Source: Clostridia bacterium
Lineage (GTDB): Bacteria; Bacillota; Clostridia; UMGS1840
Direction of reading: 5' to 3'
Length of the DNA: 64,000 nt
Assembly: GCA_045661305.1 (NCBI GenBank)
Contig: JAZRFJ010000001.1
Coordinates: 2,970-66,969, forward strand
Shown: positions 15,386-62,849 of the stretch, piece by piece
How positions within the stretch are numbered: position 1 is the first letter of the stretch
Layout: each line of letters starts with the position of its first letter
Position numbers and translations under genes: made by a program
The notes under the pieces: generated by a model
What the model saw: the letters and a program-made list of their open reading frames with translations, nothing else
Told to the model about the DNA's origin: nothing
Databases searched by the model: none

Positions 15386-15460
15386 TGGAGCGGAAGACGA
15401 GATTCGAACTCGCGACGTTCACCTTGGCAAGGTGACGCTCTACCACTGAGCCACTCCCGC
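15386..15460 (-). tRNA. tRNA-Gly (anticodon GCC), CCA encoded
   Basis: I folded the cloverleaf by hand: gcgggag acceptor, anticodon loop cuuGCCaa, T-loop GTTCGAATC. Confidence 0.9.
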
Positions 15461-15476
15461 ATAATATTTGAAATTG

Positions 15477-15552
15477 TGGTGCCTCCGACTAGAATCGAAC
15501 TAGTGACACAGGGATTTTCAGTCCCTTGCTCTACCAACTGAGCTACAGAGGC
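15477..15552 (-). tRNA. tRNA-Phe (anticodon GAA), CCA encoded
   Basis: Cloverleaf with acceptor gcctctg/cggaggc, anticodon loop cuGAAaa, T-loop GTTCGATTC. Confidence 0.9.
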
Positions 15553-15649
15553 AAATCTCTATGCACACTAAAGTGAGATGATAACTCCAAAAAACACCGA
15601 AACTTAAAACCAAGTCCCCCCGAAGTAAAACATCCCCCGAAAGTAAAGA

Positions 15650-15726
15650 TGGCGACCCGGATGGGGTTCGAACCCACGACCTCTAGCGTGACAGGCTAGC
15701 GTTCTAACCAGCTGAACTACCGGGCC
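15650..15726 (-). tRNA. tRNA-Asp (anticodon GUC), CCA encoded
   Basis: Cloverleaf with anticodon stem ctagc/gctag, loop cuGUCac, T-loop GTTCGAACC. Confidence 0.9.
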
Positions 15727-22402: not shown

Positions 22403-22408
22403 GCGACT

Positions 22409-22437
22409 ATATTAACATATTTTTTCTGTTTTGTCAA
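22409..22437 (-). promoter_or_regulatory. sigma-A promoter of the T-box leader
   Basis: On the - strand, TTGACA, a 17-nt spacer, then TAATAT. Confidence 0.7.
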
Positions 22438-22458
22438 TAGTTTTTCAAAAAATAAATC

Positions 22459-39710: not shown

Positions 39711-39785
39711 GGCGGATTGGTCAAGCGGTTAAGACACGGCCCTCACAAGGCCGAAACACGGGTTCGATTCCCGTATCCGTCACCA
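39711..39785 (+). tRNA. tRNA-Val (anticodon CAC), CCA encoded
   Basis: Hand-folded cloverleaf: acceptor ggcggat/atccgtc (G2-U71 wobble), anticodon stem cggcc/ggccg, loop cuCACaa, T-loop GTTCGATTC, discriminator A73. Confidence 0.8.
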
Positions 39786-55205: not shown

Positions 55206-55222
55206 ATTTTTGTATTAAATGT

Positions 55223-55260
55223 AAAAAGTCCCTTGTCATTTTTTTGACAAGGGACTTTTT
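55223..55260. terminator. bidirectional rho-independent terminator (hairpin T1)
   Basis: aaaaagtcccttgtca / tgacaagggacttttt, a perfect 16-nt palindrome with a T-rich loop. Confidence 0.8.
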
Positions 55261-55291
55261 ATAGCTATTTTATTGGATTTCTGAAAAAGAC

Positions 55292-55320
55292 TTGAAAAAT
55301 GTGTAAATTTATGTTATAAT
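55292..55320 (+). promoter_or_regulatory. sigma-A promoter of the small hydrophobic-peptide mRNA
   Basis: TTGAAA, a 17-nt spacer, then TATAAT. Confidence 0.65.
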
Positions 55321-55399
55321 ATGAATTAAGATAAGACTTCTTAATGGTGTTTAACACTGGCGGTTATGCCAACATCTTCTTAAAAAGGGGGTGTGGCTT

Positions 55400-55468
55400 A
55401 TGGACGAAAATTACATAATTTCTTTTATGATAATTTTATTGCTTTTAGCATTAACCATAAAAAAGTAA
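55400..55468 (+). CDS. 22-aa hydrophobic peptide, type I toxin-like (MDENYIISFMIILLLLALTIKK)
   Basis: It is not in the ORF track because it is too short. A GGGGG SD lies 9 nt upstream of the ATG. The peptide has a polar N-terminus, one TM-length hydrophobic core and a KK C-terminus. Confidence 0.55.
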   Translation: MDENYIISFMIILLLLALTIKK

Positions 55469-55550
55469 CGCCAGCCCGTGACAAAAGTTAGCGTTACTCC
55501 TTTATAAAACGTTTTCTTTTGGCATAACCGTTTGAGGTCTTGCCTTTTGT
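55458..55550 (-). ncRNA. candidate antisense (antitoxin) sRNA overlapping the 3' end of the peptide mRNA
   Basis: It is driven by the - strand promoter at 55557-55585. It ends at the hairpin gtaacgc/gcgttac (55465-55497) followed by U6 on the - strand. The U-tract is antisense to the last codons AAA AAG TAA. Confidence 0.5.
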
Positions 55551-55556
55551 ATATAT

Positions 55557-55585
55557 ATTATAGAATATTTTTTTTGATTTGTCAA
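55557..55585 (-). promoter_or_regulatory. consensus sigma-A promoter convergent with the peptide gene
   Basis: On the - strand, TTGACA, a 17-nt spacer, then TATAAT. Confidence 0.7.
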
Positions 55586-55596
55586 TAGGTTTTCGT

Positions 55597-55636
55597 AAAA
55601 AAATCCCTTGTCGGTGTTCGACAAGGGATTTTTTGT
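55597..55636. terminator. bidirectional rho-independent terminator (hairpin T2, near-twin of T1)
   Basis: aaaaaaatcccttgtcg / cgacaagggatttttt. The stem sequence is almost identical to T1. Confidence 0.8.
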
Positions 55637-55663
55637 TTTAATTAATCAAATTGTAATTATTGA

Positions 55664-55834
55664 TTATGCCTTAGGCTGTGAAGAAGCATCTGAAAGTGCT
55701 AAGTTGTAAACTGTTGTAACAGTTCCGTTAGCATCTGTAGATGTAGCAGCTTTGATAGGATTTACATCAGCTGCGATAGCTTCTCTTGACTGTAATTCAA
55801 TAATTTCAACTGTTGGTCTTGTATATTTTTTCAT
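55664..55834 (-). CDS. unannotated 56-aa ORF, last gene of the cohesin/dockerin-like operon (MKKYTRPTVEIIELQSREAIAADVNPIKAATSTDANGTVTTVYNLALSDASSQPKA)
   Basis: An AAGGAGG SD lies 7 nt upstream of the ATG. The ORF starts 29 nt after the upstream gene's stop and is followed by terminator T2. It is below the ORF-track length cut-off. Confidence 0.6.
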   Translation of the reverse strand: MKKYTRPTVEIIELQSREAIAADVNPIKAATSTDANGTVTTVYNLALSDASSQPKA

Positions 55835-55863
55835 TATATTATTCCTCCTTAAAAATCATTGAA

Positions 55864-56691
55864 TTAGTTCTTTGTTGCAGTCTGATAATCTGCATCGGTT
55901 GTAGTTTCGCCTACAAATATCTGGCAATCATATTCTTTTGAGAAATCAAGAATATTACCATCTGGGTCATAAAGTCTGATTACCCAATAGTTTCCATCGA
56001 GAACATCATCTGCACCAACATATTTATGTCCGCCAAATACGATACCATATTCTCCTGCTGCAAGATTTCCTGTAGCTTTAGCAAATACTGTTGCTACTTT
56101 TGAACCAGCTGCGAAGCCTTCTGTAACTGAACCATCTGCAGCTTTTACGCCTTCGTATGTTGGCTCGAATACTTCTTCGCCTGATTTAACTGTTGTTGTG
56201 AATGTAGCACTAGCAATTGTAGCCATACCACCATCATTCATGTCATCTAAATTGTTGGATTTTCCAATAGTTTCAAAAGTATATGTTGTACCATTCGCTG
56301 CATCGCTTGGAACAGTGAAAGTAGCTGTCATTGCAACAGAGCTTGATTTAACAACAAATGTATCTTCTGTTTCGCCATTAAAATAAATATATTTTTTATC
56401 TCCATCGGTTTTATCAGGAAAATTCTGGAAAATTCCATAACCGCCATCTGCTAAACCAGTTAAGGTTAACTCACTCGGATAGTATATTCTCACACCGGCA
56501 AATGCGCCATTAACCTCTAAGTCTGCGCCAGCATCAAAATAGAACTCTAAGTTAACTGTTTGACCTGGCTCAACTGTTGCTGGTAAATTGGATGTTAATG
56601 TAATTGTTGCTTCATCTTCAAAAGCTAAAGTTACTAATGAAAATGAAAGAATCACTGCAACTATTGCGAGTAAACTTAAAAATCTTTTCAT
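55864..56691 (-). CDS. secreted protein with cohesin-like N-terminal domain
   Basis: 275 aa with a signal peptide. ITLTSNLPATVEPGQTVNLEFYFD..FAGVRIYYPSELTLTG resembles the first strands of cohesin modules. The call is by resemblance only. Confidence 0.5.
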   Translation of the reverse strand: MKRFLSLLAIVAVILSFSLVTLAFEDEATITLTSNLPATVEPGQTVNLEFYFDAGADLEVNGAFAGVRIYYPSELTLTGLADGGYGIFQNFPDKTDGDKKYIYFNGETEDTFVVKSSSVAMTATFTVPSDAANGTTYTFETIGKSNNLDDMNDGGMATIASATFTTTVKSGEEVFEPTYEGVKAADGSVTEGFAAGSKVATVFAKATGNLAAGEYGIVFGGHKYVGADDVLDGNYWVIRLYDPDGNILDFSKEYDCQIFVGETTTDADYQTATKN

Positions 56692-56705
56692 AGTATTATC
56701 TCCTT

Positions 56706-57851
56706 TTATTTATTAATTATGTAAATAGCTTCGCCAACTGCATAATTAACTTTTTTATCATTATACTTATTTTTAACCTGACCATAGTCTCTTGAACCAA
56801 TCTCGGTATTTTCATCAATATCACCAAGAATTATATCACTACCTTCAAATATAGGTTCACCAACTGCGTAATTAACTTTTTTGTCATTATATTTGTTTTT
56901 AATCTGACCATAGTCTCTTGAACCAATTTCACTGTTTCCGTCAATATCCCCAAGCAATAAGCCTGTATCATATTTAGCATATAATGTAATTGATTCTGTT
57001 ACTGGAATATTAGCGCCAGCATCATAATCTGTAGTACCCTCTGCTGTTGTCCATTTGTAGAATGTGAAACTAACAACTCCACTATCTGTAACGGCAGAAG
57101 TAGCATCAGCTTTAGTTACAGCAGCAGGGGCAGTTACAGCACCATTAACAGCAGTAACAACAATTGCTTCTGAATCTGTACCATTAACAAATGTTACTTT
57201 AATAGTATCTTCCCCACCGCCAACTTCTTTTGGTGTAGCAGTAAATTTAGGATACAAAGCAAGGTCAGAGGTTACTTTTAATGTTGCTAAATTAACTTCA
57301 ACTTCGTTACCCTCATCGTCAATGTAATACCAAGCATCTGCAAAAGTATAGGTGTTTTCGTTATCTGCAGCTTTTGTTGGTGCTTCTTCACCAGTATAAG
57401 CTATTCCAGCGTCTGATGTAGGCTCAACTTCAACTGTTTGAAGTGCTGTTTTTTTATCCCCATTGTAGAATGTAACAGTAAATGGCTGAGCTATTGTACC
57501 AATTTTTGTTTTGTCGATAGCATCACCGCCCATATACACTGTTACTGTTTCTCCAGCATTGAGTGTATCTTTAAGGTCAAAGTTGATAACTGTTTCGCTA
57601 TCCTGTGTAAGCTGATTGATATACTGAATTGAAGATGTGTTAATTTCAGTACCTTTAACAGCCACAATAGTTGTTTGTGTGTTTACATCATCGCTTGTAT
57701 ATGAAGCGTCGTAACCACCACTTTCGCCCTTTTCCAAAGTTACAGCTGTTGTTAATTCTGGATTAGGCGTAACTGTGATTTCAGCAAATGAAGTTAATGA
57801 CATTGTGCCTATAACGGCAATTGCAGAAATCATTGCAATAAGCTTTTTCAT
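56706..57851 (-). CDS. secreted protein with two Listeria-Bacteroides-type repeats and a C-terminal duplicated EF-hand (dockerin-like) module
   Basis: 381 aa with a signal peptide. FTVTFYNG..YTFADAW and IKVTFVNG..FTFYKW..ITLYAKY are the repeats. It also has 2x GDIDGNSEIGSRDYGQIKNKYN, a 12-residue DxDxN..D Ca-loop plus helix. Confidence 0.65.
   Translation of the reverse strand: MKKLIAMISAIAVIGTMSLTSFAEITVTPNPELTTAVTLEKGESGGYDASYTSDDVNTQTTIVAVKGTEINTSSIQYINQLTQDSETVINFDLKDTLNAGETVTVYMGGDAIDKTKIGTIAQPFTVTFYNGDKKTALQTVEVEPTSDAGIAYTGEEAPTKAADNENTYTFADAWYYIDDEGNEVEVNLATLKVTSDLALYPKFTATPKEVGGGEDTIKVTFVNGTDSEAIVVTAVNGAVTAPAAVTKADATSAVTDSGVVSFTFYKWTTAEGTTDYDAGANIPVTESITLYAKYDTGLLLGDIDGNSEIGSRDYGQIKNKYNDKKVNYAVGEPIFEGSDIILGDIDENTEIGSRDYGQVKNKYNDKKVNYAVGEAIYIINK
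56730..56954 (-). repeat. tandem duplication encoding the two dockerin-like segments (33-aa units, 9-aa spacer)
   Basis: Units at 56856-56954 and 56730-56828 encode LGDID[GE]N[ST]EIGSRDYGQ[IV]KNKYNDKKVNYAVGE. The units are also highly similar at the nucleotide level. Confidence 0.85.
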
Positions 57852-58062: not shown

Positions 58063-58440
58063 TTATTTCTTAAATTTTTTTATCCACTCTAAAATCTCGT
58101 TATATTTCATTTTCCCTGCAGCGACAGCTAACCCCAACTCAATAACATCTTCGTTCAAACAATTCATTTTTATCCCCTCAGCCTCCAAGAATGTGAGCAT
58201 GACATATATACCTATTCTCTTATTTCCATCGATAAATGCGTGATTAGATATTAATGAAAATCCTAAGCTTGCTGCTTTTTCCTCTTTTGTTTTATATAGT
58301 TCCTCGCCACCAAAGGTTGAATATGCGTTGTTTATTGCACTTTCTAAAAGTCCGATATCTCTAACCCCGATACTTCCGCCTGTTTCTTTGGCTATTAGTT
58401 GATGAAGAAGTAAAACTTTTTGCTTAGTTAATTTTATCAT
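58063..58440 (-). CDS. doc: type II toxin, Doc/Fic family
   Basis: 125 aa with the Fic/Doc motif HAFIDGNKRIG. It overlaps the antitoxin stop by 4 nt. Confidence 0.9.
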   Translation of the reverse strand: MIKLTKQKVLLLHQLIAKETGGSIGVRDIGLLESAINNAYSTFGGEELYKTKEEKAASLGFSLISNHAFIDGNKRIGIYVMLTFLEAEGIKMNCLNEDVIELGLAVAAGKMKYNEILEWIKKFKK

Positions 58441-58679
58441 TTTGCCAACTCCTCAAAAGCAGGTCTGAATTTATCCAAAACTCTTTTTGCTGCAATATCA
58501 ATTTTCTCATCGTCTGTAATATCGAAATAAGAATTTGAATCTACATCAATAAGAATAAACTTTGGTTTATTGTTTTTGAATATAATTGCCTGACCATTAT
58601 TTTCAGCTACCTTAGCTACCTTTGAAAAATTTTGATTTGCTTCTGTCATAGTAGCAATTGTTTCAGTATTGATGTTCAT
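58437..58679 (-). CDS. phd: type II antitoxin, Phd/YefM family
   Basis: 80 aa. The N-terminus (TEANQNFSKV..GQAIIFKNNKPKFILIDV) is typical of Phd/YefM. Confidence 0.85.
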   Translation of the reverse strand: MNINTETIATMTEANQNFSKVAKVAENNGQAIIFKNNKPKFILIDVDSNSYFDITDDEKIDIAAKRVLDKFRPAFEELAK

Positions 58680-62518: not shown

Positions 62519-62547
62519 TTGACAAAATGAATTTTTTGTGTTAAAAT
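62519..62547 (+). promoter_or_regulatory. sigma-A promoter of rplJ-rplL
   Basis: TTGACA, a 17-nt spacer, then TAAAAT. Confidence 0.7.
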
Positions 62548-62552
62548 AACTC

Positions 62553-62849
62553 TGTTGTTCCTAAGACAATAGGTGTCAGGTGGGATTCAGGGAGATTTGA
62601 AAGGCATTTCGTATGCTGATTAAGTTGATTGGAAATCTCGTATCTTCTGACTTAAAGTTTCGCCTATCGAGGATAATATAAAAATTGACATTATTTTAGA
62701 TTTTTATATGCTACCCTCGTTTGTCTTGCGGGGGTAGCGTTTTATTGTGTGTTAACACAACAAGGTTCTCCGAAATTCTCGAATTTTAATTCGTTAGAAT
62801 TTCGTGAGGTTCTTATTTTACTATAAATTAAATGGAGGTGTAAAGGTTT
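62553..62849 (+). promoter_or_regulatory. ribosomal protein L10 leader (autoregulatory attenuator)
   Basis: A long structured leader sits between the promoter and rplJ. The 5' part CCUAAGACAAUAGGUG resembles the L10(L12)4 binding mimic. An intrinsic terminator gctaccc/ggggtagc with a U-tract lies at 62710-62746. Confidence 0.6.

Follow-up and report, generated by a model that had tools for sequence, protein, structure and literature searches.

In the 64,000 nucleotides of Clostridia bacterium DNA analyzed here (contig JAZRFJ010000001.1, hereafter the window), the intergenic stretch at 55206–55663 holds a compact cassette composed of a small hydrophobic open reading frame (ORF) and a predicted convergent antisense RNA, which we read as a candidate type I toxin–antitoxin (TA) module. 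To its left, after hisS and aspS, lies the gene of a 169-aa membrane protein (PF06695, small multidrug export family); to its right lies a 56-aa ORF on the − strand. The terminator scan provided both edges of the cassette. The left one is the terminator of the 169-aa gene (55220–55263), and the right one is a bidirectional terminator hairpin (55598–55634), beyond which the 56-aa ORF is found and which terminates this gene and would also block read-through by a + strand transcript.

The first-pass annotation of this region had proposed two facing, near-consensus promoters, and we found both. The promoter of the peptide mRNA lies on the + strand at 55292–55320 (TTGAAA-17-TATAAT with a TG extension, 11 of 12 matches), with a predicted transcript start near 55327, and that of the antisense small RNA (sRNA) lies on the − strand at 55557–55585 (TTGACA-17-TATAAT, 12 of 12 matches). 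Promoter-like sites are not enriched in the 3-kb region (11, compared with 11.3 in shuffles); the sites at 55292–55320 (+) and 55585–55557 (−) are the top two of this region and face each other. The 22-codon ORF that had also been pointed out extends on the + strand over 55400–55468, from the ATG at 55400 to a stop codon at 55466–55468, and is preceded, at a spacing of 8 nt, by a GGGGG Shine-Dalgarno sequence (SD) at 55387–55391. Its product, MDENYIISFMIILLLLALTIKK, is predicted to form a single short hydrophobic helix followed by a KK tail, with a best 12-residue Kyte-Doolittle mean of 3.24. Type I toxins are generally defined as small hydrophobic peptides with a membrane helix and a charged C-terminus (PMC6563280), and MDENYIISFMIILLLLALTIKK has this composition: it is hydrophobic, shorter than 60 aa, and combines a predicted membrane helix with a charged C-terminus.

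Predicted antisense RNA and folding of the peptide mRNA

On the − strand, the predicted antitoxin RNA runs from 55550 to 55458 (55458–55550, 93 nt) and folds to −29.6 kcal/mol. It is composed of a 5′ stem-loop (GGCA.GACC, loop UCAAAC, GGUU.UGCC), an A-rich single-stranded linker, and a terminator, which is the hairpin GTAACGC...GCGTTAC at 55465–55497 followed by U6 at 55464–55459 of the − strand. A simple terminator scan skipped this hairpin, which has a long loop; its extended stem is visible in the full fold. The − strand hairpin with its U6 and the antisense RNA of about 90 nt that had been claimed are thus present as predicted elements. The sRNA is fully complementary, over ~93 nt, to the last codons and the 3′ untranslated region (UTR) of the peptide mRNA, and the stop codon of the ORF falls within the stem of the sRNA terminator.

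The + strand RNA from 55327 to 55560 has a minimum free energy (MFE) of −65.7 kcal/mol, compared with −44.3 ± 4.2 kcal/mol for shuffled sequences (z = −5.14), and none of 200 shuffles was as stable. A fold-back of the 5′ UTR onto the 3′ UTR had been anticipated, with one helix of 12 bp and a second one with 7 of 8 pairs, and it is borne out by the fold, in which two helices, P1 and P3, bring both ends together in what we call the lock. The 5′ arm of P1 (AAG.UAAGACUUC, 55328–55340) pairs with 55534–55546; its core of 9 bp, counting G-U pairs, is formed by 55332–55340 and 55534–55542, and three further pairs lengthen it. The 5′ arm of P3 (GGCGGUUAUGCCA, 55359–55371) pairs with 55520–55532 over 13 bp. 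Between both 5′ arms stands a small hairpin, P2 (GGUGU-UUA-ACACU, 55346–55358). The fold also revealed a feature absent from the first-pass annotation. Immediately 3′ of the P3 5′ arm, an anti-SD sequence (55372–55381) pairs with the SD (55385–55394) to form hairpin P4 (ACAUCUUCUU-AAA-AAGGGGGUGU, 55372–55394), which buries the ribosome-binding site.

The 3′ arms of P3 and P1 make up the core of the 3′ UTR (UGGCAUAACCGUUUGAGGUCUUGCCUU, 55520–55546), which is also the template of the sRNA 5′ stem-loop. Alternatively, this core can fold on itself into a local hairpin (−11.2 kcal/mol) with UUUU behind it, and the hairpin with its U-run (55521–55548) may be the mRNA’s own terminator, instead of one further downstream. 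The duplex between the 5′ UTR and the 3′ core (−30.1 kcal/mol) is much stronger than the local hairpin, and a transcript ending at that hairpin would switch to the lock, in which its 5′ and 3′ ends are both paired. The 5′ UTR (AAGACUUC...CGGUUAUGCCAA) and the sRNA 5′ stem-loop (AAGACCUC AAA CGGUUAUGCCAA) are near-copies of each other. They share the recognition sequence AAGAC.UC ... CGGUUAUGCCAA and therefore compete for one and the same site in the 3′ UTR.

A family of related cassettes

The first-pass annotation had suggested looking for homologs in related genomes, and about 70 copies with the same arrangement were found. An exact-match look-up of the neighboring 56-aa protein led to one ENA contig (L081) with two tandem cassettes, and a 20-nt probe from the 3′ UTR brought the total, with L081, to ~70 copies on 60 metagenome contigs, 5 IMG/VR viral contigs, and the ENA contig. 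Several metagenome contigs carry two copies, and the IMG/VR matches of the probe were 5 true copies and 2 chance ones. Exact core matches of 20–22 nt in unrelated, GC-richer sequence (L083 3215–3234, L084 6654–6673, and L143 2250–2269) were treated as chance. As the family was gathered by an exact 20-mer from the 3′ UTR, this 20-mer is common to all copies so found. BLAST searches of GenBank phages and PLSDB plasmids gave no similar DNA beyond promoter-like fragments, and blastn, tblastn, and an nhmmer profile found no second copy within the window, where nhmmer detects a single one. A side match at 22405–22458, 42 nt of which (22417–22458) are 86% identical to the sRNA promoter region, contains a − strand TTGACA-17-TAATAT upstream of a 234-aa − strand ORF; no cassette core comes after it, so that it looks like an ordinary promoter.

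In a three-way alignment of the window copy with the two copies of L081, the invariant parts are both promoters (the promoter of the peptide mRNA is identical in the three copies), the 5′ UTR motifs TAAGACTTCTTAA.GGTG and GGCGGTTATGCCA, and TGGCATAACCGTTTGAGGTCTTGCCTTTTGTA in the 3′ UTR. The nucleotides of the ORF are heavily diverged; it remains open throughout, and its indels are multiples of three. The encoded peptides are MEYVYIMMYIITIIVLIITIKK in copy A and MIRYILKIIFLIIVFLIAFTIKVK in copy B. Family-wide, the peptides fall into three groups: G1, the window type, with 20–24 aa and a C-terminus in ...[ST]IKK; G2, with 24 aa and the pattern M[KR]KYILR...FTIKVK or ...LTQKVR; and G3, with 24 aa, the pattern M.KKLL...IIFSIKA[EQ], and an SD that is separated from the start codon by a 7-bp hairpin. 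Members of all three groups have their stop codon in the 5′ arm of the terminator hairpin.

The G3 hairpin (ATGCTTA-TGAAAAG-TAAGCAT) is a perfect one in L091, L095, L097, L111 (3074), L115, L122, L132, L140, L145 (9736), and L148. It hides two upstream ATGs, and when it is folded the SD would be ~8 nt from the true start. The ATG closest to the SD opens an overlapping frame of 41–45 codons (MKSKHC...), which is open in most members; we rejected this 41–45-aa frame as a conserved ORF, since both the place where the frame stops and the pattern of differences by codon position favor the hydrophobic frame of 24 aa.

Two additional probes extended the collection. One anchored on the 5′ UTR gave one more copy, L170, with a single mismatch in the core. 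The other, anchored on the C-terminus of the G2 peptide, gave L171 (753–969 of IMG/VR 3300029305_008391), which encodes a G2-type peptide (MKQYIRIIFFTLLFLIAFTIKVK) between wholly different UTRs; its antisense core is also different, and the TTGACA-17-TATAAT antisense promoter is kept. The family is therefore wider than the 20-mer probe could reveal.

Every element of this anatomy is conserved in the family, the ORF with a coding signature and the helices with covariation. An intact hydrophobic ORF of 19–26 aa was found at 57 of 75 sites; the others are mostly contig ends, frameshifts in A-runs that lengthen the C-terminus, or orphan loci (see below). Pairwise differences at codon positions 1, 2, and 3 numbered 415, 206, and 605 in G1, 1007, 510, and 1190 in G2, and 605, 354, and 903 in G3, counts that are phylogenetically non-independent, although the pattern 3 > 1 > 2 nevertheless recurs in three groups. 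Because of this pattern, because indels come in threes, and because the frame stays open, hydrophobic, and basic-tailed despite nucleotide divergence, we conclude that the ORF is a real coding sequence under selection. Loss of the ORF amid conserved surrounding nucleotides had been named as an outcome that would speak against a toxin gene; the ORF is instead kept open, in frame, and hydrophobic, and the UTRs and promoters are nearly invariant.

The antisense gene is maintained as well. Of 62 distinct flanks, 56 have an exact TATAAT together with a −35-like box at a spacing of 16–18 (17 in 50 of them). The terminator is retained in 55 of 65 distinct sRNAs, as an uninterrupted stem of 6 bp or more (median 11) that includes 3 or more G-C pairs and leads into a U-rich tail. 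These terminator statistics come from a stem search in each sequence, as RNAalifold on the MAFFT alignment missed the terminator, whose hairpin was misaligned. The stems have 44 different arm sequences, and the hairpin is therefore maintained by compensatory change. At the sequence level, the arrangement that characterizes type I systems, a cis-encoded antisense RNA with its own promoter and terminator that overlaps the toxin mRNA, is found here.

As for the lock, the 3′ core is paired with the 5′ UTR in the individual MFE folds of 41 of 46 distinct mRNAs. In 21 aligned mRNAs, P3 is 99.6% paired and P1 90.8% paired, compared with 37–53% when the partner is slid by 1–3 columns. Variation on the 5′ side of P1 and P3 consists throughout of pair-preserving transitions in this set, where the search probe dictated the 3′ side and left no room for double compensatory changes. 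Such a replacement is seen in L171, where 5′ CAGAUAAAAGGUUA pairs with 3′ UAAACCUUUUAUCUG and GGUUGACC is complementary to GGUCAACC (MFE −70.8 kcal/mol, z = −8.2); its P1 is different but complementary, with 14 bp. Because of the pair-preserving changes and the full compensatory replacement in L171, we conclude that the predicted 5′–3′ lock is a conserved structure. The core sequence itself is strongly, but not universally, conserved. A hairpin at the position of P2 is present in most family members, with variable sequence, and the SD is sequestered (at least 4 of its 5 bases paired upstream) in 27 of 45 mRNA folds, with anti-SD sequences that vary. Both of these short helices, P2 and P4, were judged on folds of single sequences, as MAFFT put them out of register.

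The copies occupy diverse sites. Prophages carry the G2 copies behind the tape-measure gene and ahead of the tail gene that follows it (phrog_23201/380), with baseplate genes and an integrase nearby (L082, L086, and L096); these copies have both the position and the form of morons. G1 copies are flanked by unrelated chromosomal housekeeping genes (DeoR/S6, DHFR/ECF-S, Fe-hydrogenase, SDR, and HAD/PL8 lyase), and tandem pairs combine groups (G2 and G1 in L081, G2 and G3 in L111). At L098 and L126 (two sites on one 56.6-kb contig), L116, L121, and L142, the sRNA promoter, the core, and the terminator are kept and only the last codons of the toxin ORF remain (e.g., ...SIKK*); these loci are apparently orphan antitoxin genes from which the 5′ part of the toxin gene was deleted. 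A portal protein gene lies near the orphan site of L098.

The nearest genomes to the window are uncultured Oscillospiraceae and Clostridia metagenome-assembled genomes from animal guts, with 70–86% nucleotide identity over hisS-aspS and the 169-aa gene. Synteny breaks at the stop codon of the 169-aa gene or shortly before it (nine closest loci compared; 55206 in L001), and the cassette was not found at the syntenic site in any of 80 related loci, which places it at the edge of a variable region. As synteny with the closest genomes (L001–L010) stops by that stop codon, what follows on the right in the window is an island specific to the strain or species. The absence from 80 syntenic sites, the prophage and unrelated chromosomal locations, the tandem duplicates, and the orphan sRNA genes give the cassette the context of a selfish or accessory element.

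The same variable region contains a Phd/Doc type II TA module on the − strand (58063–58679), with genes for a Phd/YefM antitoxin (80 aa, PF02604) and a Fic/Doc toxin (125 aa, PF02661) that share a 4-nt overlap. Next to the cassette, at 55664–57851 on the − strand, the 56-aa ORF (start MKKYTRPTVEIIEL...) is preceded by secreted-looking proteins of 275 and 381 aa, the latter with C-terminal repeats (GDIDxNxEIGSRDYGQxKNKYN) that are dockerin-like in appearance. The 56-aa and 275-aa proteins had no Pfam family match, and the exact-match look-up had no record of the 169-aa protein. In L081 (16–1019), the cassette is accompanied by the 56-aa protein and a 267-aa neighbor. The DNA of L001 past the synteny break encodes DegV-like, MarR-like, and glutathione-peroxidase-like ORFs, named by eye from their translations. 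The only Rfam matches at gathering threshold in the whole window were a ribosomal protein L10 leader and four tRNA genes (62542–62754, 15389–15726, and 39711–39782).

A probable type I toxin–antitoxin-like module and its alternatives

The coding ORF, the conserved antisense promoter and terminator, and the conserved fold-back all support the type I TA-like reading of the first-pass annotation. Judged from its sequence, the cassette is real and probably functional, and we consider it likely that the region is a self-contained type I TA-like module. The family is apparently undescribed and widespread in gut Clostridia and their prophages; our literature searches found no description of it.

From these elements, we infer transcription, toxicity, and the mode of action of the antitoxin as follows. 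The sigma-A-type promoter would produce a peptide mRNA of ~220 nt, or ~314 nt if transcription reads to the next terminator. This mRNA would be born translationally inert, with its SD buried and its ends locked by two helices (13 and 9–12 bp) that flank a small hairpin. The convergent consensus promoter would produce the ~93-nt sRNA. If bsrG/SR4 and txpA/RatA are a guide, this sRNA probably nucleates at the A-rich single-stranded linker or at hairpin loops before a long duplex forms; judging by the fold, pairing would likely start at the single-stranded linkers of the mRNA and the sRNA, which are complementary. The duplex would then be cut by RNase III and/or the translational block would be tightened, so that the peptide would be made only on loss of the sRNA and would then damage or depolarize the membrane.

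A more speculative extension, to which we give only limited credence, starts from the view of the mRNA 5′ UTR as a built-in copy of the antitoxin stem-loop. In this model, the antisense RNA would displace the 5′–3′ lock rather than coat the mRNA. A near-identical 24-nt core is found in three diverged peptide groups and in orphan sRNA genes without a toxin, and for this reason sRNAs could cross-neutralize toxins of other copies. Chromosomal and orphan copies might then serve as anti-addiction or immunity modules against prophages with the same lock, and a lock of the L171 type might be an escape variant.

Several observations weigh against the TA-like reading. The only similarity to an RNA family is far below threshold. 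Rfam gave no match at gathering threshold in the cassette region, and membership in BsrG (RF01412) was rejected, with an end-to-end alignment at 22.5 bits compared with a threshold of 55; among 12 other loci of the family, the BsrG model aligned end to end with one (L139, 21.8 bits) and with none of the remaining 11. The peptide matches no known toxin family (Fst, Ldr, Ibs, TisB, Hok, or holin-like) in Pfam or NCBIfam, and none in PHROGs. Indeed, it had no Pfam family at E ≤ 10, Ibs included, only noise in NCBIfam (YtzI, 13 bits compared with a cut-off of 33), and nothing significant in PHROGs. Its hydrophobic stretch of only ~16 residues is short for a membrane span, although Ibs toxins are equally short. 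The window peptide has an acidic N-terminus, and P1 is slightly weaker here than in most relatives. SD sequestration is clear in 27 of the 45 folds and not in all of them. Finally, collection by an exact 20-mer makes the apparent invariance of the core partly an ascertainment artefact. Another weak Rfam match, RAGATH-35 (18.6 bits, E = 0.38), did not recur in the family and was treated as chance.

Among the alternatives, the one that survives best, though we think it unlikely, is that the peptide is useful rather than toxic, as would be a prophage moron acting in superinfection exclusion, holin or membrane modulation, or phage defense, with the antisense RNA tuning its expression. The G2 copies, as promoter-bearing independent inserts in prophage tail operons, do occupy the classic moron position, and the toxicity of a peptide that matches no toxin family is itself a prediction. 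However, window-type copies are scattered over unrelated chromosomal sites outside prophages, the sRNA-only loci with a truncated ORF fit toxin decay with retention of the antidote better, and a double translation lock combined with an antisense promoter of consensus strength is typical of genes that need to stay off.

A purely RNA-level element, either a pair of structured sRNAs or a cis-regulatory RNA with a small, untranslated ORF, seems very improbable to us. It would agree with the UTRs and the sRNA being far better conserved in nucleotides than the ORF, with the strong RNA structure (z = −5.1), and with the existence of orphan sRNA loci, but it would leave unexplained an ORF that is open, in frame, and hydrophobic in three groups behind a suitably spaced SD (directly or across the hairpin), with indels in threes and substitutions in the order of codon positions 3 > 1 > 2; in addition, the window has no downstream + strand gene to regulate. 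We give practically no weight to a housekeeping small RNA or to chance AT-rich promoter look-alikes around a spurious ORF: 6S RNA, which is encoded near aspS in Bacillus, was suggested by the position just downstream of hisS-aspS and by the rod-like fold with paired ends, and the count of promoter-like sites equals that of shuffles, but neither 6S RNA nor any other Rfam family matched even at E ≤ 10, the element is absent from the 80 syntenic loci, and chance is ruled out by the ~70 homologous copies that stand in unrelated contexts.

If the type I TA-like reading is right, the cassette has a bearing on several questions. According to a 2019 review (PMC6563280), essentially all known type I TA systems of Clostridia come from C. 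difficile, and they are missed by annotation because their ORFs are tiny. The cassette defines a compact family of 20–24-aa peptides. Uncultured gut Clostridia and their prophages carry it in abundance, and in the prophages it takes the moron position in tail operons. Its RNA architecture (lock, SD hairpin, and 93-nt antisense RNA) is unusually clean and well conserved, which makes it tractable and a possible model for an antisense RNA that competes with an intramolecular lock. It also marks accessory DNA in metagenome-assembled genomes and might provide a counter-selection tool for genetically intractable gut anaerobes, as was done with the C. difficile systems.

Comparison with known type I systems

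In design, the cassette resembles bsrG/SR4 of the B. subtilis prophage SPbeta, with its relative bsrE/SR5. Both there and here, a hydrophobic peptide with a lysine-rich C-terminus is combined with a convergent antisense RNA that has its own promoter and overlaps the 3′ end of the toxin mRNA, a hairpin takes up part of the SD, the 5′ region of the mRNA pairs with its 3′ region, and prophages are a location (PMC3834814; PMC6563280). With BsrG scores far below threshold (22.5 and 21.8 bits compared with 55), the likeness is one of design rather than demonstrated homology. The cassette differs in its shorter peptide (20–24 aa compared with 38), without detectable sequence similarity, and in the 5′ UTR of its mRNA, which carries the recognition sequence of the antitoxin. 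SR4 is reportedly ~180 nt long with an overlap of 123 nt, compared with ~93 nt for the cassette sRNA. In bsrG/SR4, the antitoxin promotes decay of the mRNA and extends the sequestration of the SD (PMC3834814).

The txpA/RatA pair of the B. subtilis skin element also consists of convergent genes whose transcripts overlap at their 3′ ends. There, silencing proceeds via RNase III degradation of the duplex, and TxpA has 59 aa. No similarity of the cassette to RatA or TxpA was found in Rfam, Pfam, or NCBIfam. The first-pass annotation had likened the cassette to the architecture of bsrG/SR4 and txpA/RatA; the layout, a 3′-overlapping convergent antisense RNA, does match, whereas membership in the BsrG family fails at the score given above (22.5 compared with 55 bits).

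With hok/sok of plasmid R1, the cassette shares a long-range 5′–3′ fold-back that keeps the toxin mRNA inert and a sequestered ribosome-binding site. In hok mRNA, the fold-back elements are fbi and tac. Sok pairs with the 5′ leader (mok) and not with the 3′ UTR, and Hok is a proteobacterial toxin of ~50 aa; the antisense RNA of the cassette, by contrast, is directed at the very stretch of the 3′ UTR that takes part in the fold-back. Ibs/Sib of E. coli resembles the cassette in its very short, almost purely hydrophobic toxin and in its multiple and tandem copies per genome. Ibs toxins have 18–19 aa, and the Sib RNAs of this proteobacterial system overlap the whole ibs ORF.

A Clostridial host is shared by the C. 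difficile modules (CD0956.2/RCd10, CD0977.1/RCd11, and others), in which, too, an antisense RNA accompanies a hydrophobic peptide whose C-terminus is charged, in prophage and chromosomal copies (PMC6563280). Their toxins are longer, and the 2019 review of Clostridial type I systems covers C. difficile toxins of 34–59 aa only (PMC6563280); the cassette family is set apart from these modules by description and by its host, an uncultured Oscillospiraceae-like gut bacterium. On its predicted architecture, the cassette is a new family of the type I TA-like kind, one that combines the design of the 3′-overlap class with a hok-like fold-back.

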